A stretch of DNA of 64,000 nt from a virus: positions 1 to 64,000 of the IMG/VR virus record IMGVR_UViG_3300018053_000002. One strand, 5' to 3'. Position 1 is the first letter of the stretch. The number at the start of each line of letters is the position of its first letter. The notes beneath the pieces were generated by a model. It was not told the DNA's origin. It saw only the letters and a list, made by a program, of their open reading frames with translations, and made no database searches. The position numbers and the translations under genes were made by a program. Positions 1,831-60,381 of this stretch are shown piece by piece.

Positions 1831-2540
1831 AGACCATCGACGATACGGTCCAGCTCGACGCGCGGGAGTTTGGAGTGCTTCTACGCACAGGTTGGCGGAT
1901 AGGGCTCCTCGTTGCTCGGAATGTTGAACGAGGAATCGGTCAAGGTGCTCGCCAACCTCGTAACGCACATTACGAAGTGGTGAAGGTCTCAGCGCAGGAG
2001 TTCGGACGTCTTGCTGGCACGTCTGCACCACGTGTTCTACGCCACCTTGATGCCTGGGAGCTGGCGGCCGACGCGGGTCACGTTCCACATGCGACCGACC
2101 TCGTACCCGGTCAAGATGTCGAGCTGGACGATCTGCCTGACTGGGACGAGTTCTATGGTCCCATCCTCGCCCAACTCGCAACCAACCGGGCGGCAGCGAA
2201 GTCGGGTCCGGGTCGAGGGTCAGGGGTCCCGTTATCGGCCGAGGAGACGTCGGCGGCCTATGAGCTGTTCGAGCAAGGCGCCTCGGAGAAGGAGGTGGCC
2301 GAGGCACTTGACATCTCTGGCTCAACGGCACACGGCCTCAGGGGTCGGATCCAGGGCCTATCTGACTCAACCATCAATGGGCCGAGCGTGGCATGTCGCA
2401 TCGAGCCCGCTACCGAGCTGATCCAACGCATTGAGCTGGACGTCAAGAGACTGCTCAGCCCGATGTACTCACTAGGGAATCGAGATCGCAGGAAGCTGCG
2501 GAGCGTTCTAGAAACTGGACTTAGAGAGTTGGAGCCATGA
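1827..2540 (+). CDS. HTH-containing DNA-binding protein
   Basis: ATG 1827 with GGAGG; LSAEETSAAYELFEQGASEKEVAEALDISGSTAHGLR helix-turn-helix. Confidence 0.65.
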   Translation: MKTIDDTVQLDAREFGVLLRTGWRIGLLVARNVERGIGQGARQPRNAHYEVVKVSAQEFGRLAGTSAPRVLRHLDAWELAADAGHVPHATDLVPGQDVELDDLPDWDEFYGPILAQLATNRAAAKSGPGRGSGVPLSAEETSAAYELFEQGASEKEVAEALDISGSTAHGLRGRIQGLSDSTINGPSVACRIEPATELIQRIELDVKRLLSPMYSLGNRDRRKLRSVLETGLRELEP

Positions 2541-3040
2541 GCGACGTTCTCCTCCGGGTCAAGGTGGAAACCGATGTCTACACCGAGCCCGAGAACCGTT
2601 TTCACTGTGCAATCGCACACGCCATCAGGCGTGGGGACCGTGACACCGTCTGGGTCATGGTGGACCGCAACCGGATCAAATTCAGTCGGCGCAGTACGGG
2701 ACAACGCTATATCTTCCAGACCCCGGTGAAGGCACAACGCTTTATAGACGCCCTTGATAATGACGAGGACGTCAAGCCCTTCATTCTTTTACTGAGAGAC
2801 GATGACCTTCTATCAGCGGACCAGCGGAAGTACCACAACCCGGACTCGGTGATACATGACCAGGCCATTCGGCGAGGACTACCTGTCCCCCAGAGGACAA
2901 TGGCGGTTTCCTCAGCAGCCGGACCCGTACCGACGACGACCGTGGCCACTGTGCAGCGTCAACCGGCCACGCAACGACAACCGGTCAAGAGGGCCTCAAG
3001 AGCCAAACGAGAAGTAGTTTCGCGCCTACCGATTGACTAG
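2537..3040 (+). CDS. Hypothetical protein
   Basis: ATGA coupling; 167 aa. Confidence 0.65.
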   Translation: MSDVLLRVKVETDVYTEPENRFHCAIAHAIRRGDRDTVWVMVDRNRIKFSRRSTGQRYIFQTPVKAQRFIDALDNDEDVKPFILLLRDDDLLSADQRKYHNPDSVIHDQAIRRGLPVPQRTMAVSSAAGPVPTTTVATVQRQPATQRQPVKRASRAKREVVSRLPID

Positions 3041-3061
3041 GGGGGGGGGAGGGGAGGACTG

Positions 3062-3193
3062 ATGGAGTTTCCACGGCACCAGGGCGGCGGGAAGGTCGAC
3101 ATCAACAACGAGATGGTCGCTGACGCGAAAAACAGATTTACTGCTCGATACCCGGATCAGTATGAGGGCCACCTCAAGGACGGTCCGTGGTGA
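3062..3193 (+). CDS. 43-aa hypothetical protein
   Basis: GGAGGA RBS after a G10 tract; fills the gap between genes. Confidence 0.5.
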   Translation: MEFPRHQGGGKVDINNEMVADAKNRFTARYPDQYEGHLKDGPW

Positions 3194-3199
3194 TGCGCC

Positions 3200-3469
3200 G
3201 TGATTGACGTCCCCCTGTTTGAGCTGCCTGAAGGCCATGTGTTGCCCCGGGCGAAGACACTGCGCGAGCTGGACCGGGAAACTCGTCCACGGTGGACCCG
3301 GTTCCACTCAACAAACCGGACTCCCTGCGATGAGTGCATCACGTTGCTCCATGAGGCGGGCGGGGTCGGACCATATGCACGAGCGGCCAGATGGCGTCGG
3401 GTCGCACCGACCGGGACCTTGCTCCTGTGTACGGCCCACGCTGACGCCTGGCGAGCGGAGGAGAAATGA
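3200..3469 (+). CDS. Hypothetical protein, putative Zn finger (CDEC...CTAH)
   Basis: CxxC/CxxH; coupled downstream. Confidence 0.65.
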   Translation: MIDVPLFELPEGHVLPRAKTLRELDRETRPRWTRFHSTNRTPCDECITLLHEAGGVGPYARAARWRRVAPTGTLLLCTAHADAWRAEEK

Positions 3470-3804: not shown

Positions 3805-4133
3805 CCGACGTCTACCTACGACTGACCTACCGCGAATACAAGTGGCTGGAGGCGCAGCTCCGAGACTGGGAGCAGGTCGAGACCACCCACGTGTCCGTGG
3901 ACGGGTTCTACCACAAGGCGCTCCGGCTGGACATCGGTGACCTCGCGCTGGAGATCCAGGGGCCCGCGGTGAAGGCGCCGTACCGCGAGGATGAGCCCCA
4001 CCAGGTTGGTGACACCGTAATGGTTGGTGGGGTCAAGTTCACAAAGATTGCCGAGGATCCATTCGGTGCTGAGTCACCACCCAGCCCCTTCGTCGCACCA
4101 GCCGAGCCTGGCGATGTACCCATTGCTGCCTAA
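3801..4133 (+). CDS. Hypothetical protein
   Basis: ATGA coupling at 3801. Confidence 0.65.
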   Translation: MTDVYLRLTYREYKWLEAQLRDWEQVETTHVSVDGFYHKALRLDIGDLALEIQGPAVKAPYREDEPHQVGDTVMVGGVKFTKIAEDPFGAESPPSPFVAPAEPGDVPIAA

Positions 4134-4434
4134 ATGGCCGATTGTCGTCAACGTCGCCGGGGTGCTCACCTATCTCGTCGTGTCGATCGTCATGTTCGTC
4201 CAGGGCGAGGTCATCGCGGGGGCGATCTGGGTGGCCGGTGTCCTGGTATGGAGTGCGACCACGGTGCTCCAGCTACGGATGTACCGACGACACCGAAGTC
4301 ACTCGACATACTCGTTCACCGTGACATTCGGGGGCAGCGCCGTCGTCAGAGCTGCTAAGGCTGCCGCCGCACTGGTCCCCGAGCCGGAAGACCGGGTTTA
4401 TCCCTACTTGAAAAGGATCATTATCAATGACTAA
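4114..4434 (+). CDS. Membrane protein (2 TM)
   Basis: Two hydrophobic segments. Confidence 0.55.
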   Translation: MYPLLPKWPIVVNVAGVLTYLVVSIVMFVQGEVIAGAIWVAGVLVWSATTVLQLRMYRRHRSHSTYSFTVTFGGSAVVRAAKAAAALVPEPEDRVYPYLKRIIIND

Positions 4435-5059
4435 GCCAATCACTCACGTGCTCCTCGTCGTCGACATGAGCGGGAGCATGGGCCATCTCGCCTCCGACGT
4501 CCGGGCTGGGCTGAACACCTACGTGAAGGATCTGTCGACGTCCAAGAACCGGTTCCGGGCGAGCCTCACGATATTCAACACCTCGTTCACCCACCTCTGC
4601 GTGGAAGCCAAGCTCGCCGATGTGCCCACCATCGACCACACCAATTACACGCCCACCGGGTTCACGGCATTGCTTGACGCGATCGGCAAGACGGTCACCG
4701 AGTTCGAGGCGGCCGGCACGCTCGCTGAGGACGACCGGGTACTCCTCGTGGTGCAGACCGACGGGCTGGAGAACGCCTCGCGTGAGTTCACCTGGAAGCA
4801 GATTCGGGACATGCTCGACGAGCGCGAGAAGACCGGCAAGTGGGCGATCGTCTACCTCGGCCAGGGCGCCGACTCGTGGGCTCAGGGCTACAACCTCGGC
4901 CAGGGCACCCAACGCGTCCACACCTTTGCCGGGGCTCAGGCAACCAGCTCCACGTATCGCGGCCTGTCGGTAGCCACGATGGATTATGCCGACACGGGAG
5001 ACACCAGCAAGGTCGGCGAGACCATCGCCGCGACACCAGGCGTGCAGGAAGACAAGTGA
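4427..5059 (+). CDS. von Willebrand factor A (vWA) domain protein
   Basis: MIDAS DMSGSM, T-ALLDAIG, TDGxENAS motifs. Confidence 0.9.
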   Translation: MTKPITHVLLVVDMSGSMGHLASDVRAGLNTYVKDLSTSKNRFRASLTIFNTSFTHLCVEAKLADVPTIDHTNYTPTGFTALLDAIGKTVTEFEAAGTLAEDDRVLLVVQTDGLENASREFTWKQIRDMLDEREKTGKWAIVYLGQGADSWAQGYNLGQGTQRVHTFAGAQATSSTYRGLSVATMDYADTGDTSKVGETIAATPGVQEDK

Positions 5060-16469: not shown

Positions 16470-16985
16470 ATGCCGCGGACCAAGAAGCCGGCCGGTACGG
16501 CTGTCAATCCACGCAATGGTCGTCGCGCGGATCTGGTCCCGATCGCCGGGGCACGATTCGATCCGCCCGAGGGTCTTTGCGAAGAAGCGACGACGGCCTG
16601 GGACTCCTACTGGGAAGACACTGTCGCCTGCGTGATGACGCCGGTTGACCGGGCCGTGCTCGTGCGCTGGGTTCGAGAGATGGATCGTTATCTACGTCTG
16701 TCGACGGAGGCGGATCTCAACCCCTCGGTGCGCGGTTCGCAGGGTCAGCCGGTCGAGAATCCGCTCTACGCGACGGCCTACAAGGCGCTCTCGGCAGTGC
16801 AGGCGTGCGAGAAGCAGATGGGGATGGGCGCACTGAACCGCTCGGCTCTGGGCATTGCGGTGATCACTGAACGCAAGAGCCTCGCCGAGATGAATGCCCG
16901 GTACGGGGGTGGCGACGATGCTGATCGCGACCGCCCTGCCATCGTCGCCGAGATCGTCGACCCGCGGAGAATCATCGAAGGCTGA
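16470..16985 (+). CDS. terS: Terminase small subunit (P27-like)
   Basis: W...W; GSQGQPVENPL; G...R..LG motifs; position. Confidence 0.85.
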   Translation: MPRTKKPAGTAVNPRNGRRADLVPIAGARFDPPEGLCEEATTAWDSYWEDTVACVMTPVDRAVLVRWVREMDRYLRLSTEADLNPSVRGSQGQPVENPLYATAYKALSAVQACEKQMGMGALNRSALGIAVITERKSLAEMNARYGGGDDADRDRPAIVAEIVDPRRIIEG

Positions 16986-18540
16986 CGGCTGTCCGGCGTG
17001 TGGCTGGAATCCGGCCGACGAGCTGTGGCCCAGTCACGGTGACATCGCGGTGCAGTGGATCAGCGACAATTGCATCTGTGGCGATGGCGACTGGTTCGGC
17101 CAGCCCATCAGGTTGCGCCTCGACCAGCAACGCTTTCTCTGGCGCTGGTACGAGTATTGCCCCGAGTGCAACCAGTGGCGCTATGACGAGGCACTGCGCG
17201 GTGCGGCCACCGGCGACGGCAAAACCCAGTTCATCGCGTCGATCGTGGTGCTGGAGTTCGCCGGCCCGCCACAGATCGCGCCATCCTCACCGATCATCCC
17301 GATTGCCGCCGCGAGCTTCGACCAGGCCAATCTCCTGTTTAGTGCCGTGGCTACGATCTGTGGTGGCCGAGATCAGAGCGTGCGTGAGTCGCCGTTGCGT
17401 GAGTTCTTCGAGGTCTACGACACGGTGATCAAGTTCGCCGACGGTCGGCCAGGTCTCATCGAGCGCGTCGCCGCGGTCGCGGGAACCAACGAGGGTGGTC
17501 TGCCGACGCTTTTCGTGCGTGATGAGTTGCATGAGTGGGGCGACGTCGGAGACCGCCGGGCCCGTGTCGCCACCGTCATCGGGAAGTCCACCAACAAGCG
17601 GCGTACGCCTCACGGCTCGGGCCGGATCATCAGCCTGTCCACGGCCGGGTTCGACATCGACCATTCTTTGCTCGGCGCCAAGTGCAAGCTCGGTGAGCGC
17701 GTGGTGCGGAATCCCTCGTTGTCGCCGCGGTTCCTCTACGACTGGCGCCAGGCGCCCGACGGGCTCGACTATCGGCTGCCGGCTGACCGTGAGATCGCGG
17801 TACGCGCTGCCTCCCAGGCGGCCGACGTGCTCTGGAACGTGCGAGACCGGGTCGACGACTGGGGAAAGCCCGAGTGGCCCGCGCATGAGTGGATCCGCTA
17901 TTACGCCAACCGGTGGGTCGACGTAGCCGAGGAGAGCTGGCTCAAGGACCACCCCGCCGCGTGGGTGCAGTGTGAGGGGACCTGGACGTCTAGTCCGTCG
18001 AACCCGTTTGTGGTCTCGGTGGACATGGCGTTGCGCCGGGACTCGGTAGCGGTCTCCCGGATCGAGCAACTGCCGGATGAACGCTTCGCCATCACGTCGC
18101 GAATCTGGGTTCCGACCGGTGCGCCGATCGACCACCTGGACGTGTTCAACCACGTACGCACGCTGGCCTACGGTGTCGGTTTCCGCGGTGTTGTGTACGA
18201 CCCCCGATTCTTTGAGTTGCCGGGTCGGATGCTGGAGGACGAGGGCATCCTCGTGGTCTCCTTTGACCAGTCGCCGCAGCGGATGGCGCCGGCGTGTGGG
18301 CTCGCCTTCGATCTCATCGTCAATCAGCGGATCGTGCATGACGGTGACCCCGAGCTGGGCGCGCACATCAAGGCGGCCGTGAAGCGTGAGCAGGAGCGCG
18401 GGTTCACGCTGAGCAAGGGCAAGAGCAAGCGGTCCATCGACGCAGCGATCACCCTGTGCATGGGTGTCTGGGTCCTCCACGAGCCGGCCGAACCGGTACA
18501 GCCGTTCTTCGGGACCTGGCGCGCGAGAGGTGGGGCCTGA
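16918..18540 (+). CDS. terL: Terminase large subunit
   Basis: Walker A GDGKT, Walker B RDELHE, STAG, nuclease VDMA..RD, YDP, IDAA. Confidence 0.95.
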   Translation: MLIATALPSSPRSSTRGESSKADGCPACGWNPADELWPSHGDIAVQWISDNCICGDGDWFGQPIRLRLDQQRFLWRWYEYCPECNQWRYDEALRGAATGDGKTQFIASIVVLEFAGPPQIAPSSPIIPIAAASFDQANLLFSAVATICGGRDQSVRESPLREFFEVYDTVIKFADGRPGLIERVAAVAGTNEGGLPTLFVRDELHEWGDVGDRRARVATVIGKSTNKRRTPHGSGRIISLSTAGFDIDHSLLGAKCKLGERVVRNPSLSPRFLYDWRQAPDGLDYRLPADREIAVRAASQAADVLWNVRDRVDDWGKPEWPAHEWIRYYANRWVDVAEESWLKDHPAAWVQCEGTWTSSPSNPFVVSVDMALRRDSVAVSRIEQLPDERFAITSRIWVPTGAPIDHLDVFNHVRTLAYGVGFRGVVYDPRFFELPGRMLEDEGILVVSFDQSPQRMAPACGLAFDLIVNQRIVHDGDPELGAHIKAAVKREQERGFTLSKGKSKRSIDAAITLCMGVWVLHEPAEPVQPFFGTWRARGGA

Positions 18541-18728
18541 TGGTTGCACTCACGACGCGTGCCCGCGGTCTTGGGCCCATTGTGCTGACGTCGATTGGTG
18601 CCCTCGTCATCGGGGCTGGTTGGCTGACTCACCGGATCGTTGCCGGGTCCTGGTTCGCTATGACCTGGATCGCCGCAGCGTTCATGGAGGGCTGGGCCTC
18701 GGCTCAGCGGCCACGTGTCGTTTCTTGA
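18540..18728 (+). CDS. Small membrane protein between terL and portal
   Basis: Two hydrophobic segments; TGATG coupling. Confidence 0.6.
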   Translation: MVALTTRARGLGPIVLTSIGALVIGAGWLTHRIVAGSWFAMTWIAAAFMEGWASAQRPRVVS

Positions 18729-21444
18729 CCGCATCAACGCTCGGCACCGTGGCGAGACGCGCAACTCGATCGACGGGTGGGTCAGCGACTATCTGTTTCC
18801 GGCCTCTGGCATGTTCGGGTTCGGTGGCAACCAGTACCCGTACGGGCTGAACACGACCTACTCCCGGCTGGCCGTCCAGGAGATCTCCTCGACCTTGCCG
18901 GGGCATATGGCCGCGGTACGGGGCTGCCCGCCAGCATTCGCAGCGGAGATGGTGCGGGCGCTGGTGCTCTCTCAGACGCGCTTCACGTTCCGGAACCCGC
19001 CCAGTCATCCCAAGACGCCGCGGCGGACGTTTGGCACGGGGGCGCTCTCGTTGCTGGAGCACCCGTGGCCGAACGCGACTACCGGCGAGCTGGTTGCCCG
19101 GATGGAATGGCACGCCGGTCTTGCTGGCAACGCCTTCGTCACCAACCGGACCGCGGGTCGGTTGCGGGTGCTGCGTCCGGACTGGGTAGCCATCCTGTAC
19201 GGCAGCGACCAGGAACCGGAGATGGCCGCGCACGCGCTCGACGGCGAGCTGCTCGGCTATGTCTATTGCCCTGGTGGGTTGGTGTCGACGGGACTTTCCT
19301 TGGCGCCGGCTGGCGGTGGAGAGCTTTACACCTTGCTGCCTCACGAGGTCGCGCACTGGTCGCCGCTGCCTGATCCTGAGGGTGCCGGTATCGGGATGTC
19401 CTGGATTACGCCGGCCATCCGGGAGATTCAGGGTGACACCATTGCTGCGCAGCACAAGGTTCTGTTCTTCCAGAATGCGGCGACCCCGAATCTTGTGGTC
19501 AAGGGCATTCCGGCGCTGACGAAAGATCAATTTGATGAGATCGTCGGTGCGATGGAGGAGCAGCACGCCGGTATTAGGAACGCTTACAAGACCCTTTACC
19601 TGACTGCCGGCGCCGATGCCACCGTGGTGGGCGCCAATATGCAGGAGGTCGACTTCAAATCCACGGTGGGTAGCGGTGAAACGCGGATCTCGTTCCTGTC
19701 GCGGGTGCCGGCACCGGTGCTGGGAATCTCAGAAGGACTCGCCGGGTCGAGCTTGAACGCCGGCAACTTTGGACAGGCCCGTCGCAACTTTAGTGACACC
19801 TGGGTGTACCCGACGCTGCAAGATCTCTGCGCTGCGCTCGTGTCGATGGTCCGGGTTCCCTCGGATGCCGAGCTGTGGTACGACGTCACGGACATGCCGT
19901 TGCTTCGTGAGGACGCGAAGGATGCGGCCGAGATCATCAATATTCAGGTTGAGGGTGTCACTAAGGCCGTTCGAGAGGGCTTTACCGCCGTTTCCTCGAT
20001 CGCTGCGATTGCTGGTCAGAACGTCAATCTGCTGGTGCACACTGGTCTGACCTCCGTCCAGCTCCAGAAGCCGGGGGAGGATCCGAATGACCCGTCCGCC
20101 GGTGACACTGGGCCCGACGGTGAGCCCACCGATGATAAGACTCAAGCTCTGTCTGATGCGTTGGACGAGGTTTCTGCTAGTCGGAACGTTGAAGAGCGCG
20201 TGAAGGTGCCGAGGAAACGGCTGCCTAGTTCGCGTCACCGAGGGGGTGCGTGGGCGATGTCTATGGACCCCCAGCTTCGGCATCGGACGTTGCAATTGAT
20301 CGGGCTTGCGGATCGCAATGCTGTTCCTGACGATTCAGACGACCTTGACGAGGATGCGGCGGCGCTCCTCTGGGCTCTTCAGGAGATCGAAGACCTGGAC
20401 GATGAGATCGAGGAGGCCCCTTCGGCTCGGAATCGAGCGCTTCGTCTGGCCGGTGTGGAGCGTGCATGGACCGCTGCCCAAGCCGCTAAGCATCCTCGCA
20501 ATTTGAAGGGCCCGGGTGGCGGGCGGTTCCGGTCGTTGTCACAGAGGCTCATTGACTGGATGTCAAGCATGGGCAATCGTGAGGACAGTCCGTTTGATGG
20601 CTTTGACCGAAAGCAACTGGCAAAGGTTGCTAGAGCGCGTGGTCTGAAGGTCGATCGTAAGGACGATCGGGATGCGATCATCGACAAGCTGGTTGATAAC
20701 CTTGAGTTCAAGGATCCTGGGAAGAAGGAAAGCCTGAAGAAGGCGATAGCCGGGAAGAAGAGCCGGGCACTGCACAAGTCGGTGGCGGTAGAGAAGGACC
20801 AGTTTGGCCAGGAGATAGCCCCGAAGGCGGTCCCGAAGGCGGTCCCGAAGGCGAAGCCTGGCCCTGATGATGTCGCGATCAGCAAGGCGCTACGGTCGCT
20901 GTCCTCGGGAGAGTTTGCCAGTATCGATGGAAGCCAGATCGATGCGTTCATGGCGGCCATGAGGGGCCAGGATCCTCCGGTCAATCTCTCATACCTCAAG
21001 GTGAACGGTCCTGGTAATGGGAACCTCTATGACCGGCATCTGCGGGACATTCCCCGATCGGAGATGCCGCAACTACCGACGACCGTTGAGGACTTGCAGG
21101 CGTTCCGTCTCAAGCTCGCCGACATGAACGTCAAGACAACTTATGAGCAGGTTGACCCGCGAACTCTCGTCGCGACACAGAGCGAGCTGAACGGTCCGAA
21201 GGTTGCGAAGCTGTTTGGTTTCATGCGCGAGGGCGGATGGCAAGAGGGTGGCGCGCTCATCATCTCACGCGAGGGGGCCGTGCTGGACGGGCATCACCGT
21301 TGGGCTGGTGCTGCTGCTGCCCGTGCGGCCGGCAAGGACATCAACGTCACGGCACTCCGAGTTGACATGGGTATTGACGAGCTTCTGGACGTGGCGCAGA
21401 CGGTGTCGCTTCCCCGTAAGTCGCTCGACGAGGCTCCGAAGTAG
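18715..21444 (+). CDS. HK97-type portal protein fused in frame to a tagged extension carrying a ParB/Srx-like domain
   Basis: Portal motifs (LL..P.PN.T, GNAF, LRPD.V, FF.N.ATP, VP..LG) in the first ~450 aa; C-terminal LDGHHRW ParB-like domain; internal RBS+ATG at 20257. Confidence 0.85.
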   Translation: MSFLDRINARHRGETRNSIDGWVSDYLFPASGMFGFGGNQYPYGLNTTYSRLAVQEISSTLPGHMAAVRGCPPAFAAEMVRALVLSQTRFTFRNPPSHPKTPRRTFGTGALSLLEHPWPNATTGELVARMEWHAGLAGNAFVTNRTAGRLRVLRPDWVAILYGSDQEPEMAAHALDGELLGYVYCPGGLVSTGLSLAPAGGGELYTLLPHEVAHWSPLPDPEGAGIGMSWITPAIREIQGDTIAAQHKVLFFQNAATPNLVVKGIPALTKDQFDEIVGAMEEQHAGIRNAYKTLYLTAGADATVVGANMQEVDFKSTVGSGETRISFLSRVPAPVLGISEGLAGSSLNAGNFGQARRNFSDTWVYPTLQDLCAALVSMVRVPSDAELWYDVTDMPLLREDAKDAAEIINIQVEGVTKAVREGFTAVSSIAAIAGQNVNLLVHTGLTSVQLQKPGEDPNDPSAGDTGPDGEPTDDKTQALSDALDEVSASRNVEERVKVPRKRLPSSRHRGGAWAMSMDPQLRHRTLQLIGLADRNAVPDDSDDLDEDAAALLWALQEIEDLDDEIEEAPSARNRALRLAGVERAWTAAQAAKHPRNLKGPGGGRFRSLSQRLIDWMSSMGNREDSPFDGFDRKQLAKVARARGLKVDRKDDRDAIIDKLVDNLEFKDPGKKESLKKAIAGKKSRALHKSVAVEKDQFGQEIAPKAVPKAVPKAKPGPDDVAISKALRSLSSGEFASIDGSQIDAFMAAMRGQDPPVNLSYLKVNGPGNGNLYDRHLRDIPRSEMPQLPTTVEDLQAFRLKLADMNVKTTYEQVDPRTLVATQSELNGPKVAKLFGFMREGGWQEGGALIISREGAVLDGHHRWAGAAAARAAGKDINVTALRVDMGIDELLDVAQTVSLPRKSLDEAPK
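20248..20276 (+). repeat. 29-bp direct repeat, copy 1 (copy 2 at 25405-25433)
   Basis: GCGTGGGCGATGTCTATGGACCCCCAGCT identical at both sites. Confidence 0.9.
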
Positions 21445-21486
21445 ACTTGAGCCGTGCGGTGCTACCGACGATGAGAGGGGAGGTAG

Positions 21487-21660
21487 ATGATGGCAGAAGG
21501 TAGAGAACTGAAGCTCGGTGGTGAGCCCACCACGCCGCCACCGGATCCTGACCAGCCGTGGCTATGGACCGGTGACGAGTCGATCGGGAAGAAGGGCTGG
21601 ATCCTGGTGATCACTGACACCGGAGACGGTGTCCCCGAGTCACTTGATGACCTTGACTAG
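21487..21660 (+). CDS. Small acidic protein
   Basis: GGGGAGGT RBS; 57 aa. Confidence 0.6.
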   Translation: MMAEGRELKLGGEPTTPPPDPDQPWLWTGDESIGKKGWILVITDTGDGVPESLDDLD

Positions 21661-21877
21661 TCCCCTGTACGAGCGGTTGGTCGAGGTTCTTGGTACCCGT
21701 GATGTGCACCCTGACGTCCGTAGCAAGATCCAGGATGCGTACATAGAAGTTGGTGATACGGGCACCTGGGACGACCTGCCCGTGGACGTGAGGCAGATGA
21801 TCGAGGAGTCCGAGAGGCTTCCGCGTCAGGCTTGGGACGACCCAGCCGACGTACCTCAGGATCTCGACAAGCTCTAA
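21647..21877 (+). CDS. Small acidic protein
   Basis: Overlaps previous stop; 76 aa, D/E-rich. Confidence 0.6.
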   Translation: MTLTSPLYERLVEVLGTRDVHPDVRSKIQDAYIEVGDTGTWDDLPVDVRQMIEESERLPRQAWDDPADVPQDLDKL

Positions 21878-21906
21878 AGGTCTGTTTCCTGGGCCAGGGG
21901 GTGGTT

Positions 21907-24900
21907 ATGCCGCACCCTGGCCTCCGTATATCCGCAGCCGAACGGCACCGGGCCATGCAGCTTGCTGGGCTGCTTGATGTGCGGCGAGTGTATAACCCGG
22001 CGCTACATCCCCGTATCTTGAGGGGCCCGGGTGGCGGTCAATTCCTGAGCAAGAAACTGGTGGCCGGTCAGCATCCGCACAAGGAGCCTCAGAGTACGGA
22101 TCTTCTTCATGACCCTGCCAAGATCGAGGCGCTTCGTCAGACGGTTCGGCGTGCTCGGTCCCGATACGCGGGTCGGACCGCTGACGACCGGTTGGCTGCG
22201 ATCAGTGCCTTGCAGGGATTTGACGGTGCTCCGACCGTTGTGCCAAGCGCTGAGATGGACCGATTGCTGGCAACCGGGGACTTCATCGAGGTTTGGCGTG
22301 GCGTAAAAGGGTTCGGGGCAGCGCCTAGTCAAAAGACTGGTGGTAGCCCGGTCTCAACGACCAAGACCGCGGCTGCCATTAATGACGAGTTCCGTACCGG
22401 GCCGGCGTACTTCGGAACGGGCATCTACGGGAACGGGTTCTACTTTTCGACTGCCAGGGAAACTGCGCAGGGATACGCTGATGACACAGAGGGCAGTCTT
22501 GTACGGGCGTTGATTCCTAAGGATGCCAGGATCGGACGGTGGCGTGCATTGCGTGAAGAGGCTCGCCGCATCAATGACCACCCGGGCGAGGATGGCACGC
22601 TTTATGACGAGGGTCGCTATGCCGCCGCCAGGGGTATTGACGTCATGGAGATTGACGATGATTACCTTGCGACCCAGTTTGGCGTCAGGCCGGATACCCA
22701 GGGTGGCACTAAGTCGGCGTTCAATGTCCTTAATAGGTCCGTTCTGGTTGTCGAGGACAGTCCTTCGGCGGATGTGTTAGCCGAGAAAAAGAGGCGCCAG
22801 TTCCTTATGGAGGTGTCTACCTTCCCGCTCACGTCGATGGACTTCTCGGGCAAGGTCAGGCATCGGGCGCTTCAGCTTGCCGGCATCGTCGGGGCCGATG
22901 AGGATGTCGAGGCGCTCCTGGTGGCTCTGGACGAGTTCCGGGCGTGGGATCCGGCTAAGCATCCTCGTAACTTGAAGGATACTCCGGGCGGGGGCCGGTT
23001 CCGGTCACTTGTGGCTTGGATTAAGGCTGCGCTAAAGATCTGGGACGATAAGCTCCAAAGTAGTGGCGATACGGTGGGAGACAGTCCGCTGGCGGGGTTC
23101 AGTCATGAACAGCTACAGAGGGCGGTAAAGAAGCTAGGGCTCTCGGTGCGACCTGACGCGAGTCGCGCGGAGATTGAAGAGCTGTTTAACGCTGATCTTC
23201 GGGCCCGTATGACCCACGACGCCCTGATTGCCGGCAGGGCTGCTCATGCTCCACCTCCCCCGATCGATGTGCTGATGCGCCGTCTGGCTCAGGAATCGTC
23301 GGCTAACCTCGCTGGGCTGGAGGTCCGGGGGTACGGGAACGAGCATCTGTATGCGAAGCATTTACGTGAGATCCCCCGGGACCAGATGCCGCAGTTGCCG
23401 GAGAACGTGGCTGGACTAACGCCGTTCCTTAAGGCGCTGAACGAGCGGGGCGTCAAGTCAGAGCTGGTGGACATGGATCCCCGGCAGTTGACCATGACCC
23501 AGAACCAGCTCGACAGCAAGAAGGTCGGTTACCTTTACGACGCGATCCGTGACAAGGGGTGGAGAGAAGAGACCGTCATGGTCGCCTCGCGGGAGGGTGC
23601 GATCCTGGACGGTCACCATCGATGGGCTGCTGCCTCCGCTGTTCGTGCGGCCGGTGTTGAGTTTGATCTTCACGTGCTTAAGGTCGATATGGGCATCGAC
23701 GAGCTGTTGACGTTCGCTGATGGCTTTTCGGGTGTCAAGAAGTCGATGGAACAGGCGATGGTGCGTGACCGTACTCTCTGGCTCGCTGGCATCGTCGAGG
23801 AACGGAAATATAACCCGAGCCAAGCCCGGGTCCCGAAGGGTAGTCGGTACGGCGGTCGCTGGGGATCTGTCTCGGTCATGCACAAGCTCTGGGACCGTGC
23901 CAAGGAGGGTGGCTTCACCTATAACACCGTGAGCGGTGATCAGCCCACAACCGGGTTTGCGCTCTCCGTGTATCCGGACCGGTCCCGGGTCATCGCGACG
24001 CGCGATTTCACGCCGGCTTCCATCCAGGAGTACCGTGACGCCAACCGTGAGGTTCTGTCCAAGCCGAACCACTATCTCGGGGCATGGCGCGAGCGTGACG
24101 AGGACGAGGGCGTCGACCGGGTCTGGCTCGACGTGTCTATCGTCCAGAGTGACCGGGCTGAGGCTGAGCGGGTCGGTCAAGAGTTTGATCAGATCGCCAT
24201 GTTCGACCTCGGTGAGGGTACAGAGATTAGTCTCGGTGGTAAGGGTGGAGAGGTCGGGCTACTCGCGGACGTTGCACCCGAGAAGCCGGGGCCGAGAAAG
24301 AGGGCTAAGAGCAGGGCACCTCCTGCGCTCCCTGCTTCGACGACGGCGCAGTCTGACTCTGATTACCAGCCTGGCAAGTGGAAAAAGGCTGACAACAACG
24401 TTGTCAAAGAAGAGTTTCTCGGGATGCTCCGGGACTACTTGCATCGGGCGGGCCTGTCCACCGAAGACGTTAAGCGCATGGTTGAGGACGAGCGGGACGA
24501 CCTTCCTGACCCCCGAGCGGTCTACGAGAACGGTCCGCACTATCTTACTGTGTGGAGCGACAGGCCCATTGGCCAACTCCGGATGGGCGAATTGTTTGAC
24601 GCCATCGACCGGTTGCAGACCACTAATCCCAGCAGTGATCCGCTCAGAATCTCCATTCGGCCTCAGCACGAGATGCCGGGACCGCCAGGTGTGGCAGTAG
24701 GCAAAGCGGCTGGAGCGACGATTCGGGGTACTGGCTCGATAATACTGAGTGATCGGATGATCGATGATTGGAACGACCCCGATCTGTTCGGCAACTTTAT
24801 GCCGGTCCGCACCTCTGTTCCTCTGGGTGAATATGTTGTCACTCACGAGTGGGGCCACGTGGTTGATCACTCTGATGAGGACCCATTGGCTGAGTCCTGG

Positions 24901-25068
24901 CAGAACATAGTCTGGCAGCGAAACGCGAAATACTTGTCGATCTACGGGAACACTGAGTACTCCGAGGGTTACGCGGAGGCGTTCGCTGAGTGGTTCTTGA
25001 CCAAGGGCCAGACAACCAATGTGGCGGCGCAGGCGTATGCTAAGGAATATGGATGGAAGCATGGCTAA
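21907..25068 (+). CDS. Polyvalent virion-associated protein: ART-like + ParB-like + unknown (SAM-lyase-like?) + zincin metallopeptidase
   Basis: WRGV...G.GIYGNGFYF...A..YA...LNRS (ART-like); LDGHHRW (ParB-like); THEWGH...S.Y...E.YAEAF (HExxH); three repeated tags. Confidence 0.75.
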   Translation: MPHPGLRISAAERHRAMQLAGLLDVRRVYNPALHPRILRGPGGGQFLSKKLVAGQHPHKEPQSTDLLHDPAKIEALRQTVRRARSRYAGRTADDRLAAISALQGFDGAPTVVPSAEMDRLLATGDFIEVWRGVKGFGAAPSQKTGGSPVSTTKTAAAINDEFRTGPAYFGTGIYGNGFYFSTARETAQGYADDTEGSLVRALIPKDARIGRWRALREEARRINDHPGEDGTLYDEGRYAAARGIDVMEIDDDYLATQFGVRPDTQGGTKSAFNVLNRSVLVVEDSPSADVLAEKKRRQFLMEVSTFPLTSMDFSGKVRHRALQLAGIVGADEDVEALLVALDEFRAWDPAKHPRNLKDTPGGGRFRSLVAWIKAALKIWDDKLQSSGDTVGDSPLAGFSHEQLQRAVKKLGLSVRPDASRAEIEELFNADLRARMTHDALIAGRAAHAPPPPIDVLMRRLAQESSANLAGLEVRGYGNEHLYAKHLREIPRDQMPQLPENVAGLTPFLKALNERGVKSELVDMDPRQLTMTQNQLDSKKVGYLYDAIRDKGWREETVMVASREGAILDGHHRWAAASAVRAAGVEFDLHVLKVDMGIDELLTFADGFSGVKKSMEQAMVRDRTLWLAGIVEERKYNPSQARVPKGSRYGGRWGSVSVMHKLWDRAKEGGFTYNTVSGDQPTTGFALSVYPDRSRVIATRDFTPASIQEYRDANREVLSKPNHYLGAWRERDEDEGVDRVWLDVSIVQSDRAEAERVGQEFDQIAMFDLGEGTEISLGGKGGEVGLLADVAPEKPGPRKRAKSRAPPALPASTTAQSDSDYQPGKWKKADNNVVKEEFLGMLRDYLHRAGLSTEDVKRMVEDERDDLPDPRAVYENGPHYLTVWSDRPIGQLRMGELFDAIDRLQTTNPSSDPLRISIRPQHEMPGPPGVAVGKAAGATIRGTGSIILSDRMIDDWNDPDLFGNFMPVRTSVPLGEYVVTHEWGHVVDHSDEDPLAESWQNIVWQRNAKYLSIYGNTEYSEGYAEAFAEWFLTKGQTTNVAAQAYAKEYGWKHG

Positions 25069-25222
25069 GCGGGTGATCACCGACACCTCGGAGGGTCCGG
25101 TCTATACGGATCTTTGGGAGTTGTCTGATGAGCAGATCCGGCTCTTGGCCGTGTCTGGTAGCAAGGACGCGACGGAGGAGTTGGCTCGCCGTATCGCGGA
25201 GAGGATGCAGGCGGATGGCTGA
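25061..25222 (+). CDS. Small acidic protein
   Basis: Overlaps polyprotein stop. Confidence 0.6.
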   Translation: MAKRVITDTSEGPVYTDLWELSDEQIRLLAVSGSKDATEELARRIAERMQADG

Positions 25223-25352
25223 GCTGCGTGTTGCCATGATCCCTGGCGATGCCTCTGACGAAGAGATCGACCGTATCCACGCGGCCCTGGTCACGGACCC
25301 GCCACCGGATGAGCCAGATGATGAGCCAGACGATGAGCCGGACGAGGATTGA
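25215..25352 (+). CDS. Small very acidic protein (DEPD repeats)
   Basis: Overlap coupling; GATGAGCC repeats. Confidence 0.55.
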   Translation: MAELRVAMIPGDASDEEIDRIHAALVTDPPPDEPDDEPDDEPDED

Positions 25353-25413
25353 TCCATAACTGAAGGCTTGGGCTCTCTCGCCCACGTGATCCCTGAGGGG
25401 GGTGGCGTGGGCG

Positions 25414-25701
25414 ATGTCTATGGACCCCCAGCTCCGGGATCGAGCGCTCCGGTTGGCTGGCGTTCGTGTGGCCGGCAAGGATGTCACCCCGGGCCACGAT
25501 CAGCTCCACCACTACTGGACCCGTGGTCCCGGTCTCGCTAAATGGGCTAAGAGCCCTCACCCGTGGACGGCGCTTTACAACCATCTTGTCAAGTACGTAG
25601 GCCCCGAGCGCGCAAAGCGTATGGCTGCGCAGTGGCACAAAGAGGTCTTCGGCATCTGGCCAGGGGAAAAGAAAGGCAAGAATCCAGTCGGTCCCGGCTG
25701 A
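25414..25701 (+). CDS. Small head-module protein (L..YW..G.G...L.KY...H...G.WPG) with N-terminal RxRALxLAG tag
   Basis: Motif pattern recalled from actinophage head modules; carries the tag. Confidence 0.7.
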   Translation: MSMDPQLRDRALRLAGVRVAGKDVTPGHDQLHHYWTRGPGLAKWAKSPHPWTALYNHLVKYVGPERAKRMAAQWHKEVFGIWPGEKKGKNPVGPG

Positions 25702-25777
25702 GCGGGGTGCTTGTAACGGTAACTGGCCGGGCTCATATCCCGAGCGACTAAGGGTTCGATTCCCTTCCCCGCCACCA
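25701..25777 (+). tRNA. tRNA-Met(CAT), initiator-like (fMet)
   Basis: Acceptor GCGGGG/CCCCGC with A1:C72 mismatch; GGG-CTCATAT-CCC anticodon arm; AAGGG-TTCGATT-CCCTT T arm; encoded CCA; weak D arm. Confidence 0.8.
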
Positions 25778-25812
25778 ACCCGCATCACACGACATCGAGA
25801 GGTGGTGCGGCG

Positions 25813-27399
25813 ATGACGTCTGTCCCGACGATGACTGTGCCTGTCCGGACCTGGGACCACCGGGCGGACTCGAAAGAGCCCTACGGTCCTGCGTCGAAAG
25901 CCCACTATGCCGACCCCGGCTACCAGAAGGACGGTCAGAAGCGCTACCCGCTCGACTCCGAGGACCATTGTCGAGCTGCCTGGTCGTACATCAATCAAGC
26001 GGCCAACGCAGCCAAGTACACGCCCGACGAGCTGGCCCGGATCAAGGGCCGGATCAAGGCTGCCGGGAAGAAATATGGCATCGAGTTCTCCGACCAGCGG
26101 TCACGGTCGCTGCGGTTCTTTGATGAGAGCAAGTACGAACGTGACCCCAAGAATCAGCCAACCGGCGGCCAGTTCAAGACCAAGGCTGCGGAGAAGGCAC
26201 CGGCCAAAAAGACTACCAAGAAGGCGCCCGCCAAGAAGGCGACGACGCGTCGGCCCGCAGCCAAGAAGGCTGAGTCATCTAAGGGTGATATGGCCTATGA
26301 CCCGGACACCGGGCGTGGTCCTGGCTACGGCACAGCCGGTGGCGATGCGCGGGTCAAGCAGCTTCAGACCGCTCTGAACCGGCTGGGTCTTACCGATTCA
26401 CGTGGCCAGAAGCTCAAGGTCGACGGGAAGTTGGGTCCCAAGACCACCCAAGCCATCAAAGCAGCACAACGACGCCTCGGCATGAAGGCGGATGGACGGG
26501 TGACTCCTGCCATGCTAGCTCAATTCTCCGGCGCCAAGTCGCTGTCTAAGAGAGCGAAACCCAAGAACTGCACCTGTGGGTCCGTGGAATGCATCGCCGA
26601 CGAATGTGGGGATGACACGGAGTACCGCCGGACTGTGCCAGACGTCTGCGTGCGCGCGTTCGACTTCGAGTCACGTTCTCGCGGTGGCGATGGGCGCACG
26701 CTGGAGGGCTACGTGGCGGTGTTCGGTGCTGTTGCGCGGATCGCTTCCAGTCAGGGCGGTGACTTCGACGAGGAGATCCATCGCGGCGCATTCGACGACT
26801 CGCTGGGACGCTCTTTCCCGGTAATGCAGTTCGACCATGGTCGTGACACCCGTGTCGGGTCAGTGCCGATCGGGGTCTATGAGGTGTTCGAGCCCGACAG
26901 TCGTGGCTACTTCGTCCGCGGCAAGCTGCTCGACAACCCCGTCGTGGAGCCGGTCCGGCAGGCCATTACCGCGGGCGCCATCCGTGGCATGAGCTGGCGG
27001 ATGATGGTCGACCCCGCCAAGGGGTCCCGATGGACCCGTCGCAGTGGCCAGGTCGACAAGCGCGATGTGATCCGGGCCGATGTTCCGGAAGCCGGGCCCG
27101 TCGTTTTCCCGGCCTATGACGCCACTACTGTTTCTGTCCGCTCGATCCTCGCGGCAATGCCAGAAGAGGAACGAGCGGCACTCGTCCGTGAGCTTGCAGC
27201 CGAGGTTCGGCTCGCCGTGGACCTTAATGACTTCACCGGGCGATCGAGTGCATGGAGCACAGATGGCGGTGAACTCGGCCCCGAACGGCAGGAGCCAGAG
27301 GAGCCAACCAGCACAGACATAACCGCCCGCTTCCATGACCCTGATCCGGCTCAAGCCGGTAGGGAACGGTTGCTACGCCTACAAGGAGTTCTTAAGTGA
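25813..27399 (+). CDS. Prohead protease (HK97 gp4-like) with N-terminal DUF6582-like and peptidoglycan-binding domains
   Basis: LEGY.AVF, FDHG...PIG, GMSW, E.GPV.FPAY..T; YADPG..KRYPLD; VKQLQTALN...DG..GPKT..AI...Q PGBD. Confidence 0.88.
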   Translation: MTSVPTMTVPVRTWDHRADSKEPYGPASKAHYADPGYQKDGQKRYPLDSEDHCRAAWSYINQAANAAKYTPDELARIKGRIKAAGKKYGIEFSDQRSRSLRFFDESKYERDPKNQPTGGQFKTKAAEKAPAKKTTKKAPAKKATTRRPAAKKAESSKGDMAYDPDTGRGPGYGTAGGDARVKQLQTALNRLGLTDSRGQKLKVDGKLGPKTTQAIKAAQRRLGMKADGRVTPAMLAQFSGAKSLSKRAKPKNCTCGSVECIADECGDDTEYRRTVPDVCVRAFDFESRSRGGDGRTLEGYVAVFGAVARIASSQGGDFDEEIHRGAFDDSLGRSFPVMQFDHGRDTRVGSVPIGVYEVFEPDSRGYFVRGKLLDNPVVEPVRQAITAGAIRGMSWRMMVDPAKGSRWTRRSGQVDKRDVIRADVPEAGPVVFPAYDATTVSVRSILAAMPEEERAALVRELAAEVRLAVDLNDFTGRSSAWSTDGGELGPERQEPEEPTSTDITARFHDPDPAQAGRERLLRLQGVLK

Positions 27400-28883
27400 G
27401 CACCGCCACTCGCACCGCCGTTCGTGATGACGACGGCAACCGCGGGTTCGACCTGACCATGGAGGACCTGCAAAACAAGACACCGGAGGATCTGCGCGAC
27501 ATCATCAGCATCACGGAGGCTCACCTTCGCGAGCTGCACCAGGACGAGCGTGGTTCCCTGCGCATCCTGGACGAGGCCGAGCAGGCTGCATTCGACATTG
27601 CCATGGAGATCCGCAACGCGGCCATGGACATGCTCGACAAGCACAACGAGATCCGGTCCGTGCTCCAGCGCCGGCCAAAGTCGGTTGAGCGTGCGCTGTC
27701 CAGCATGGGCCACCGTGATGACGACCCGTACTCGAACGTGCGGCGTATGACCCATGCCGAGGCTCGTGACAAGGCACTTCGGGTGCTGGACACGCGCGAG
27801 GCTAAGTCGTCGCTCAGCGCTCCGCAGATGGACCAGGTTGAGAAGCAGGTCCGTCGGGACTCTGACATCGCCAAGCGGTTGCTGGTCACCGAGACCGAGC
27901 ACTACCGCAGCGCATGGATGAAGGTTGTCACCGATCCCAACGGGATGGGTCTGCTCGACGACGAGGAGCGTAACGCCCTTCGCGCCTACCAGGAATACCG
28001 GGCAATGTCCGAAGGTGTCACCACCGCAGGTGGATTCGGAATCCCCGTATTCATCGACCCATCTATTATCCTCACTGCCCAGGAATCGGGCAACCCGTTC
28101 CTCACCCTGGCCCGTCAGGTCACCGTCAACACGAACGCCTGGAAAGGTGTCTCGTCCGCCGGTGTCACCTGGCAGTTCCAGGCCGAGGCGGCCACGGCCA
28201 CGGACGCAAGCCCGGTGCTCGCTCAGCCGTCTGTCACAGTGTTCATGGCTCGTGGTCTGATCCCCTTCTCCATCGAGGTTGGCCAGGACTACCCGTCCTT
28301 CGCCGACGAGATGGCGACTCTGCTCGCGGCCGGTTACGACGAGCTGCTCGTGGACAAGTTCACGCGCGGCTCTGGCTCCAACGAGCCGAGGGGCATCCTC
28401 ACGGCCCTGTCCGCCAACACAAACGTCCGCATCACGCTGACGACTTCTGGCTCCATCGGTTCGCCTGACCCGTACAAGGTGTGGGCGGCCCTTCCCCAGA
28501 AATTCCGTCGTCGCGCCAACTGGCTTATGTCGGTTGACGTCAACAACAAGTTCCGCCAGCTCGGTACTGCGAACGTGTTCCATGCGTACACGCAGAACCT
28601 TCCGGCGGAATGGGCGGACATTCTGTTCGGTAAGGGTGTCTACGAGAGCCCGTACATGCCGGACTCGACCACCTCGACCTCTGCGACGACTGGTCTGGCC
28701 GTCGTTGGGGACTGGCAGAACTACGTCCTGGCCCGGCGCGGCGGCATGACCGTCGAGCTGATCCAGAACTTGGTTGACGTGACCACCAACATGCCGACCG
28801 GCCAGCGCGCCTGGTTCGGGTACGCACGTATCGGTGGCAACTCGGTCAACGACCTCGGCTTCCGGCTGTTGGTCAACACCTGA
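27396..28883 (+). CDS. Major capsid protein (HK97 fold, N-terminal delta domain)
   Basis: RAMS...GGF.IP, G.G..EP.GI, LFG..V, GDW..Y...R, R.GG motifs; follows protease. Confidence 0.95.
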   Translation: MSTATRTAVRDDDGNRGFDLTMEDLQNKTPEDLRDIISITEAHLRELHQDERGSLRILDEAEQAAFDIAMEIRNAAMDMLDKHNEIRSVLQRRPKSVERALSSMGHRDDDPYSNVRRMTHAEARDKALRVLDTREAKSSLSAPQMDQVEKQVRRDSDIAKRLLVTETEHYRSAWMKVVTDPNGMGLLDDEERNALRAYQEYRAMSEGVTTAGGFGIPVFIDPSIILTAQESGNPFLTLARQVTVNTNAWKGVSSAGVTWQFQAEAATATDASPVLAQPSVTVFMARGLIPFSIEVGQDYPSFADEMATLLAAGYDELLVDKFTRGSGSNEPRGILTALSANTNVRITLTTSGSIGSPDPYKVWAALPQKFRRRANWLMSVDVNNKFRQLGTANVFHAYTQNLPAEWADILFGKGVYESPYMPDSTTSTSATTGLAVVGDWQNYVLARRGGMTVELIQNLVDVTTNMPTGQRAWFGYARIGGNSVNDLGFRLLVNT

Positions 28884-60055: not shown

Positions 60056-60381
60056 TGACCTCGACCTTTGCCGGTGCATCGGCCAAGGAGATCCGGGCGG
60101 CCATCGACGACATTGCTCGGGCAATCAAGGCGATCCGGGGCCTGGACGAGATGCCGTCACGTGAGGTCGCGATGCGCCATATGATCCAGTTCCTCGACGG
60201 TCTCATGGACCAGCTCGTCGCAGCCGGCGTCTGTCCCGAGCGACCGGAGCTGCGTGGTGATCAGCAACTCGGGCTGTACCCCTGCCCGTTCTGTAGCTGC
60301 ATGGTCCTGGCGGGGGAGCCTCATAGCCCTCACGATCAAGGGTGCGCGCTGGGCCTGGACGGGTTCGGGATATGGCGGTAA
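60055..60381 (+). CDS. Hypothetical protein with CPFC...H...C
   Basis: AAGGAGGAG RBS. Confidence 0.65.
   Translation: MTSTFAGASAKEIRAAIDDIARAIKAIRGLDEMPSREVAMRHMIQFLDGLMDQLVAAGVCPERPELRGDQQLGLYPCPFCSCMVLAGEPHSPHDQGCALGLDGFGIWR

Follow-up and report, generated by a model that had tools for sequence, protein, structure and literature searches.

We analyzed the first 64 kb (hereafter the window) of a 74-kb uncultivated virus record in IMG/VR, IMGVR_UViG_3300018053_000002, the completeness of which was estimated at 81%. The record is from an actinobacterial-type phage with a head module that is encoded entirely on the + strand in the order of large terminase (TerL), portal, polyvalent gene, prohead protease and capsid protein. 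The subject of this report is a nine-residue peptide of the pattern R-x-R-x-[LM]-x-L-x-G (motif 1, or the tag) that was found to be repeated in the cargo-encoding open reading frames (ORFs) of the head module and to recur in the C-terminal tail of the protease. A second peptide, of the pattern [WFY][DN]P..[HQ]PR.P.G...GG.[FW] (motif 2, or the header), was found in tandem with the first. Although the two motifs were merged into one system in the initial annotation of this DNA, our comparisons indicate that they differ in kind, with motif 1 being specific to a clade of phages and motif 2 being a generic header. Literature searches found neither motif 1 nor motif 2 described, and a single peptide that is common to the protease tail and the cargo of an HK97-type phage clade, and that co-varies between the two, appears from these comparisons to be new.

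Repeated tags in the head module

Motif 1 was detected in seven copies distributed over four head-module ORFs, all on the + strand and in frame, with six of the copies in cargo and one in the protease tail (Table 1). By chance, 0.013 copies would be expected from the composition of these four ORFs (2586 amino acids, aa). All seven copies of motif 1 that had been listed in the initial annotation were recovered at their positions, including the protease copy that lies three residues from the C-terminus, and the five copies of motif 2 were likewise found to be real. The sole further match to motif 1 in a six-frame translation of the window was at position 60067, on the - strand and in an unrelated frame. 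When a matrix of the tag was scored over the whole 74-kb record, the six cargo copies were found and no others.

The DNA encoding the copies of motif 1 was 63-82% alike, and synonymous codons were found to vary among the copies (CGG, AGG or CGT for Arg at position 1; TTG, CTG, CTT, CTC or CTA for Leu at position 7; and GGG, GGT, GGC or GGA for Gly at position 9). Together, these differences argue that the repeat is held by selection on the peptide and not on the DNA.

Three of the tags in the window are located 8 to 13 residues from a start codon (20257, 21907 and 25411). The first of these codons is situated in a 57-nucleotide (nt) repeat of the region in which the small tagged ORF begins. 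Since a G-rich stretch and the ATG are both retained in this repeat, the first cargo cassette could be made as part of a fusion protein or as a product of its own, and translation could begin internally at ATG 20257 to give a separate cargo protein of 395 aa. By AlphaFold2, the tag was predicted to form a short low-confidence helix that ends at its Gly and is followed by a low-confidence or disordered tether before the next domain. An acidic amphipathic helix lies between the first two tags, and its counterpart at 22897-22938 was predicted to be helical, with a predicted local distance difference test (pLDDT) value of about 77.

Table 1. Tags, headers and other features of the head module, with positions given in the window.
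Feature	Position	Strand	Details
Large terminase	16894-18540	+	
Portal ORF	18715-21444	+	909 aa; Phage_portal (PF04860) only aa 110-413, E 1.4e-23
57-nt repeat of the start region of gene 25411	20242-20298	+	82% identical; G-rich ribosome-binding-like stretch and ATG 20257
Motif 1, copy 1, RHRTLQLIG	20278-20304	+	
Acidic amphipathic helix between tag copies 1 and 2	20341-20415	+	counterpart 22897-22938
Motif 1, copy 2, RNRALRLAG	20428-20454	+	
Motif 2, copy a	20461-20529	+	canonical; H-P-R...G-G-G-[RQ]-F at 20491
Polyvalent cargo gene	21907-25068	+	from ATG; 1053 aa; phrog_2859, E 8e-19
Motif 1, copy 3, RHRAMQLAG	21943-21969	+	12 residues past start codon
Motif 2, copy b	21985-22044	+	canonical; H-P-R...G-G-G-[RQ]-F at 22006
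Motif 1, copy 4, RHRALQLAG	22858-22884	+	internal module boundary; predicted helix, model residues 3-12
Motif 2, copy c	22939-23001	+	canonical, H-P-R at 22960; D-E-F-R↓A-W ahead; low-confidence, mostly unstructured model
Motif 1, copy 5, RDRTLWLAG	23764-23790	+	internal module boundary
Motif 2, copy d	23803-23862	+	degenerate, Q-A-R...Y-G-G-R-W
Small tagged ORF	25411-25701	+	96-99 aa; phrog_6439 family
Motif 1, copy 6, RDRALRLAG	25435-25461	+	8 residues past start; predicted helix, residues 6-15, low confidence
tRNA-Met (anticodon CAT)	25701-25777	+	ARAGORN
Prohead protease	25813-27399	+	528 aa
Motif 2, copy e	26113-26175	+	degenerate, F-D-E-S-K-Y-E-R-D-P-K-N...G-G-Q-F; protease N-terminal extension
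Motif 1, copy 7, RERLLRLQG	27361-27387	+	protease C-terminal tail; then V-L-K and stop codon
Major capsid protein, HK97 fold	27396-28883	+	495 aa; PF05065 aa 212-492
Tag-like delta-domain helix E-A-R-D-K-A-L-R-V-L-D	27759-27791	+	conserved
E200-Y201-R202 of capsid protein	27993-28001	+	R202 invariant, E200 and Y201 at least 90% (15 capsid proteins)
Arrows here and in the text mark predicted or known cut sites.

The portal domain occupies only part of its ORF and reads in frame, without a stop codon, into a tagged cargo module that ends in a ParB-like domain with the sequence D-G-H-H-R-W; this fused ParB-like module was matched to phrog_2859 (aa 731-898, E 6e-18). The absence of a MuF domain, as stated in the initial annotation, held across the 74-kb record, with no match to Phage_Mu_F (PF04233) at E <= 0.01 in this record (81% complete) and none in the ORFs. 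No separate scaffold gene was seen; a scaffold domain forms the N-terminal part of the capsid protein itself. When compared to a phage collection, neither a 10-kb stretch of the DNA nor the polyvalent protein gave a match.

Other features of the region include very acidic small ORFs on both sides of the polyvalent gene (21488-21661, 21629-21877, 25077-25222 and 25230-25350, all on the + strand). The gene for tRNA-Met separates the small tagged ORF from the protease gene, and its first base is the final base of the upstream stop codon.

The protease tail, the capsid protein and tags of related phages

The protease of the window was found to comprise, from its N-terminus, DUF6582 (PF20223, aa 29-94, E 7e-19), a degenerate copy of motif 2, a Lys/Ala linker, PG_binding_1 (PF01471, aa 179-237, E 7e-14), Peptidase_S78 (PF04586, aa 285-443, E 1.7e-20), an acidic and Pro-rich linker of ~70 aa and the tag-like tail. 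A peptidoglycan-binding domain, as present in the N-terminal extension of ~270 aa (25813-26620), is odd for a prohead protease. This extension may be cargo that is used at entry, and with its DUF6582, degenerate header and peptidoglycan-binding domain it has the look of one more cargo unit like the others.

Relatives were collected by scans with a protease alignment, which yielded 21 loci from IMG/VR and 31 loci from metagenomes, some of them duplicates; a profile search of genome contigs with the protease alignment found no relative. All of the related proteases have a variable acidic linker followed by a short basic/hydrophobic C-terminal peptide. The initial annotation had made its proposal depend on conservation of the motif at the protease C-termini of related phages, and the proteases from IMG/VR and metagenomes were indeed found to end in a tag-like peptide. 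With a matrix of the 9-residue core (R1 to G9) built from cargo tags only, 12 of 20 protease tails scored at p < 0.05 and 6 of 20 at p < 0.01 when compared to random 25-aa windows, the tags themselves being included among these windows.

Cargo tags were also detected in the relatives. Ten genomes with a related protease, with near-duplicate contigs counted once, were found to encode 23 cargo tags of the consensus D-x3-R-x-R-x-L-x-L-x-G-[IV]-E-x-R. These tags were found at the start (M-D-x-x-x-R-x-R...) of a large gene after the portal gene, where the tagged gene is a separate ORF in a frame that differs from that of the portal; at the internal borders of proteins of 1000-1800 aa; and at the N-terminal end of the small phrog_6439 protein, which is either encoded before the protease or fused to it. 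Alignment of 13 leaders revealed the two Arg residues and the Gly to be invariant and the two Leu residues and the downstream Arg to be at least 90% conserved, at a mean column identity of 32%. Among 149 representative proteins that were found by way of motif 2 (see below), motif 1 occurred in 12 copies compared to 0.32 expected, and these copies were always N-terminal or at a module boundary. The tag begins the protein in relatives and in three of the proteins found by profile search (P0024, P0060 and P0131). Based on these comparisons, we consider motif 1 to be specific to this phage clade and to head the cargo genes of related uncultured phages.

The related phages vary greatly in module order and content. 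In four of the loci, the portal matches were found in two pieces that are ~0.8-1 kb apart and have overlapping query ranges (L009-L011, with L009 at 580-1581 and 2407-3009, and L015 at 2321-3094 and 4103-4726). This arrangement suggests an insertion in the portal gene that could be an intein, an intron or homing-endonuclease-like.

The sequence of the protease tail was found to change together with that of the cargo tags. The tail of L009-L011 is R-H-R-V-L-V-A-L-G-V and the cargo tag of the same contig is R-H-R-V-L-S-A-L-G-V; the 398-aa protein P0131 begins with the V-L-S-A-L-G variant. In a second subclade (B), the protease tails are of the form R-L-D-[DEQ]-G-A-L-[RQK]-x-[RK]-G-I-L, and leaders of the form D-[DE]-x-x-L-R-x-R-G-[IV] were detected in three distinct genomes of this subclade (L003, L035 and L036; L037 and L036 are probably one phage). 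Arg-type tags were found in ten genomes, 24 in all and with no B-type tag among them, and nine of the tails of these genomes are A-type, the tail of L016 being too diverged to class. No genome mixes A-type and B-type tags, and the - strand, used as a control, gave three A-type and no B-type matches. Tails were found to resemble the tags of their own genome more than those of others (permutation p = 0.009, 9 genomes) and, in a one-to-one pairing, the phrog_6439 leaders to go with the protease tails (permutation p = 0.007, 21 genomes); both tests leave shared ancestry uncorrected and their p-values overstate independence, because the A/B split is essentially one evolutionary event to which the L009 variant is added, so that about two or three independent changes are represented and not 21.

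In the capsid protein, an N-terminal stretch of about 202 aa forms the scaffold (delta) domain and precedes the Phage_capsid domain, which starts at aa 212. A close solved relative (PDB 9lw6/9lw7/9lw8, a 543-aa 'Phage capsid-like C-terminal domain-containing protein', E 6e-102), for which no paper was found, is matched from a conserved delta-domain helix onward. The tripeptide E200-Y201-R202 lies eight residues ahead of an A-G-G-F-G-I-P-V-F block. The maturation cut of HK97 gp5, K103↓S104, is at the same spacing from the equivalent block, and from this likeness of spacing R202↓A203 is predicted to be the maturation cut of the capsid protein. Similar residues follow the tags in the form G-[IV]-E-x-R, such as G-I-E-V-R↓A in the relatives and D-E-F-R↓A-W, V-E-R↓A-W and E-E-R↓K-Y in the window, and T-E-Y-R↓R precedes the start of the S78 domain in the protease itself. 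These sites fit a single predicted protease specificity, E-x-R↓, that would act on the capsid protein, the cargo and the protease.

The delta domain was also found to include a tag-like helix. A site of the form E-A-R-D-x-A-L-R-x-L-D-D-R was the best match to the tag matrix in 13 of 15 capsid proteins, a weak lead that is not significant after correction for length. The columns in which the capsid proteins of A-type and B-type phages differ by a switch of charge are all in the delta domain, which, with only three related B sequences, is a lead rather than evidence. Prediction of a complex between the full capsid protein and a 46-aa tag-plus-header leader gave a score of 0.05 compared to a mark of 0.32, and this result, obtained without controls, speaks neither for nor against binding.

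Motif 2 and the cargo modules

The five copies of motif 2 in the window are three canonical and two degenerate ones. One of the degenerate copies is in the N-terminal extension of the protease, and the relatives L012 and L013 have a canonical motif 2 at the same site. A profile built from the four tag-plus-header stretches of the window was scored against 1.84 billion cluster representatives and matched 207 proteins at E <= 1e-3 and 20 proteins at E <= 1e-10, with up to 13 copies in each. Most of these proteins are 1000-4000 aa in length with 2-10 separate matching stretches, and nearly all were matched through the motif 2 half of the profile. In the best 149 representatives, 346 instances of motif 2 were found in 132 proteins, 43 of them within the first 35 residues, with the consensus [A]-[A]-[WKF]-[DYF]-[EPDN]-[PSA]-[KDN]-[HQ]-P-R-x-P-[KA]-G-x3-G-G-[QRE]-[FW].

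Motif 2 is positioned at N-termini and at the borders of modules. Its carriers hold Acb1, PARP/ART, NUDIX, Fic, GNAT, ParB-like and MuF domains as well as portal domains of HK97 type and Mu type, and thus belong to the phage-type polyvalent proteins as defined by Iyer et al. 2017 (PMC5512222). The placement of motif 2 in a system local to this phage, as made in the initial annotation, has to be given up, as the motif is a generic header in many unrelated phages, some of which have MuF domains or Mu-type portals. On present sequence comparisons, motif 2 is a very widespread and apparently undescribed header or junction peptide of the polyvalent cargo proteins of phages and is not particular to this one. 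When one leader was modeled with AlphaFold2, motif 2 came out at low confidence and largely without structure.

The same broad comparison bears on the cut that had been proposed at the Arg between the two motifs. This cut is plausible for the tagged proteins, where the Arg after the tag is nearly invariant and E-x-R↓A resembles E-Y-R↓A-M-S of the capsid protein. By contrast, a cut is not the general meaning of motif 2, because no conserved Arg was found ahead of motif 2 in general among its instances in the best 149 representatives.

Some tags are followed by the peptide G-H-P-H-P-G-Q-x-Y-x-H-G-W-[IKV]-P instead of the generic header (L016 at ~3830-3900, L026 at ~3190-3270 and L042 at ~1240-1310; P0033 and P0148), and this peptide may be a second type of header or a strongly diverged motif 2. 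A different two-part linker was noted in P0007, a 1293-aa protein from a JGI metagenome that is a distant relative of the polyvalent protein and was not found in viral contigs. This linker, I-D-P-I-N-x-H-W-x-x-L-x-K-x-L plus N-C-G-T-G-x-G-G-F-x-P-G-N-x-C, is used likewise, three times ahead of modules, and its first part occurs again at the extreme C-terminus.

The polyvalent protein of the window was found to combine, in a single polypeptide, several effector or enzymatic domains that are unrelated to each other. Its order is tag and header followed by an ART-like module; tag, acidic helix and header followed by a ParB-like module; tag and degenerate header followed by a module of no recognized type; and a zincin-like H-E-W-G-H sequence near the C-terminus. 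The sequence D-G-H-H-R-W is present in the ParB-like modules of both this protein and the portal fusion. The assignments of two other modules are weak: the ART-like module matched ART-PolyVal at E 0.034, below the Pfam cut-off, with nothing found by a profile against PDB sequences, and the H-E-W-G-H region had ATLF as its sole Pfam match at E 0.055, again below the cut-off. An hhalign match of the ART-like module to P0021 was rejected as circular, the P0021 sequence being part of the profile.

A leader cassette of ~110 aa, consisting of tag, acidic helix, motif 2, a further helix and a conserved helical domain, precedes different payloads both within and between genomes. After motif 2, both ParB-like modules (20530-20700 and 23002-23230, + strand) share the helix R-S-L-x-x-x-L/I and a block of the form D-x-P-[FL]-x-G-F-x-x-x-Q-L-x-x-x-x-x-x-x-G-L, which is present in many relatives and was modeled by AlphaFold2 at a pLDDT of about 90. 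Assignment of the helical domain after motif 2 as SAP/HeH-like was considered and dropped, as Foldseek of the leader-cassette model against PDB found nothing at E <= 0.001.

In the model of the small tagged protein, the N-terminal tag is joined through a flexible tether to a small helical domain. Matches in BFVD show this domain in cultured actinophages, where it is fused to capsid maturation proteases (Gordonia phages Phendrix and Clown), to proteins of 550-1100 aa that are annotated as 'RNA ligase' (Gordonia phages Lilbeanie, Tardus and MelBins) and to a 'capsid morphogenesis protein' (Microbacterium phage OneinaGillian). Related cargo proteins are present in phages of Gordonia, Mycobacterium and Microbacterium.

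Proposed loading and processing of the cargo

From the repeats as observed, with their locations, sequence conservation and co-variation with the tail of the protease, we infer the following course of binding, cutting and ejection. Proteins encoded in the 7 kb between the portal and capsid genes would be loaded into the prohead. Each cargo unit would have a two-part leader, with motif 1 as a Gly-capped short helix on a flexible tether, then motif 2. During prohead assembly, motif 1 would bind the site that recruits the protease tail, most likely in the delta domain of the capsid protein. After assembly, the protease would cut after E-x-R, the type of site predicted in the capsid protein (E-Y-R↓A), and this cut would strip the N-terminal tags and split both the polyvalent protein and the portal fusion into their modules. 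The freed modules (ParB-like, ART-like and zincin-bearing) would start with motif 2 and could exit with the DNA.

The concerted change in cargo and protease across the relatives makes motif 1 probably a loading address. For the fuller proposal, that motif 1 is an address to the capsid interior common to protease and cargo and is followed by a protease cut at E-x-R, we judge the chances of its being right and wrong to be about equal. Its extension to evolution, in which one co-evolving peptide is the common address of the maturation protease and of swappable effector cargo and is reset together with the scaffold domain as lineages diverge, is more tentative, and we hold it to be somewhat less than an even prospect.

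Several points weigh against this proposal. The copies of motif 1 at internal boundaries and behind the portal domain need no address, and the co-variation, which represents only the few independent changes noted above, is equally expected of a mere substrate site that is read by a co-evolving protease. The likeness of tail to tag is modest in several genomes and absent in L017, L020, L021 and L042, and no tag was seen in the available DNA of several genomes with a B-type tail. A motif as short as E-x-R has no statistical weight by itself, and it was not seen after B-type tags. There is no cultured relative; among cultured phages in the phage collection, the nearest proteases are at most 45% identical, in the catalytic domain only.

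Some of these points also favor a different explanation, in which motif 1 is purely a processing signal, read as an extended site by the S78 protease or by the putative zincin-like peptidase at the end of the polyvalent protein, and has no part in targeting. The cargo would then enter by the portal fusion or other contacts, and cutting at motif 1 would separate the modules and trim the tail of the protease itself. Copies are present at internal module boundaries and right behind the portal, where an address would be superfluous; the Arg after the tag is nearly invariant; E-x-R is like the predicted cut site of the capsid protein; and the co-variation of tail and tag suits a co-evolving protease as well as it does a binding site. 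Processing of polyvalent proteins by zincin-like peptidases was moreover proposed by Iyer et al. 2017 (PMC5512222). However, many of the tags are only 5-15 residues from the starts of separate genes, where a cut would free just a tiny peptide as in T4, and the small phrog_6439 protein is tagged although there is nothing from which it could be cut. What is conserved is a helix-like, Gly-capped pattern of 13-17 residues and not the extended site of 4-6 residues that is typical of a substrate, and the cut site of the capsid protein has just E-x-R in common with the tags and not the R-x-R-x-L-x-L-x-G core. The tags near start codons and the helix-like length fit an address better than a processing signal, while co-variation cannot separate the two. 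A processing signal without targeting is, in our estimation, unlikely.

Another explanation keeps motif 1 as an address but has it read by a partner other than the delta domain, such as the protease body, the portal or, through self-association into an inner body, the tags on further cargo molecules. Fusion of the first tagged module to the portal speaks for such a partner, and the acidic helix beside some of the basic tags could pair with the tags of other molecules. The reported recruitment of the HK97 protease through the capsid delta domain argues by analogy for the delta domain instead, as do the charge-switch columns of the capsid protein at the strength of a lead stated above. We regard a partner of this kind as improbable.

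Least probable of all is that the repeats are mainly recombination joints for the swap, duplication or fusion of effector modules, like the demarcation motifs VENN or Rhs of polymorphic toxins, with an incidental likeness to the protease tail: the recurrence of the leader cassette before different payloads, the 57-nt repeat with its ribosome-binding-like stretch and start codon (as a recent duplication of a cassette into the portal frame) and the great differences in module order and content among relatives all suit such joints, but the limited DNA likeness and differing codons of the copies point to selection on the peptide, and a joint need neither match the protease end nor co-vary with it. 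One role does not exclude the other, and a recombination-joint role likely co-exists with the address role.

The proposed address, with its cut, has counterparts among known packaging systems. The internal proteins IPI-III and Alt of T4 and DarB of P1 have N-terminal capsid targeting sequences that are sufficient for loading, and the T4 sequence is removed by the prohead protease at a type of site common with the capsid protein (PMC9024508). Similarly, in the phages examined here a short peptide is common to the N-termini of several genes (5-15 residues from the start) and is followed by E-x-R, like the predicted site of the capsid protein, a parallel in sequence. There is no similarity in sequence to the T4 system, the protease is of the S78 (HK97) type and not of the gp21 type, and a separate scaffold core is missing; in addition, the tags are also internal and in tandem with a second motif, and the same peptide is present at the end of the protease. 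By analogy, the system would work like the capsid targeting sequences of T4 and P1 and like the HK97 tail, yet it does not belong to the T4 system.

The HK97 system shares with this phage a Peptidase_S78 protease with a flexible linker and a short C-terminal tail, as well as a capsid protein with an N-terminal delta domain and no separate scaffold gene. Work by Duda, Oh and Hendrix in 2013 is said to have identified the HK97 protease tail as the targeting part, with recruitment by way of the capsid delta domain. Whereas the use of such a tail is known in HK97 for the protease only, the tail peptide here is shared by cargo proteins and co-varies with them, and the protease differs from that of HK97 by its N-terminal extension with DUF6582, header motif and peptidoglycan-binding domain. 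The HK97 protease itself co-assembles into Prohead 1 (PMC12749128).

Iyer, Burroughs, Anand, de Souza and Aravind described polyvalent proteins and effectors fused to portal or MuF domains in a text that names neither linker motif (PMC5512222). ParB-like, ART-like and putative zincin-like modules beside portal and terminase genes, fusions to the portal and predicted proteolytic processing are common to that description and to the phage analyzed here. By contrast, MuF is missing from this phage, and an address common to the protease tail is absent from that description. Compared to the widespread headers, motif 2 in this phage is paired with an upstream, clade-specific motif 1, and two of its five copies are degenerate. 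The tags also resemble the cargo-loading peptides of encapsulins in being a short peptide common to unrelated cargo of the interior of an HK97-fold shell. This likeness is an analogy only, as the cargo peptides of encapsulins are C-terminal and their shells have no portal, protease or DNA, whereas the phage is a tailed one with TerL, portal, protease and tags that are N-terminal or internal.

To our knowledge, how proteins are chosen for packing into the head and for injection with the DNA is known only for a few model phages (T4, P1 and P22) and not at all for polyvalent cargo. If motif 1 acts as an address, it would explain how cargo is loaded without a MuF domain in a group of actinobacterial-type phages, and cargo would be predictable from sequence. 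As a small natural tag, ~15 residues would then suffice for the loading of any protein into these HK97-type capsids, with the A-type and B-type tags as orthogonal pairs of address and shell. Combined with a near-universal header peptide, motif 1 would then give a tailed phage a natural code for the loading of cargo.

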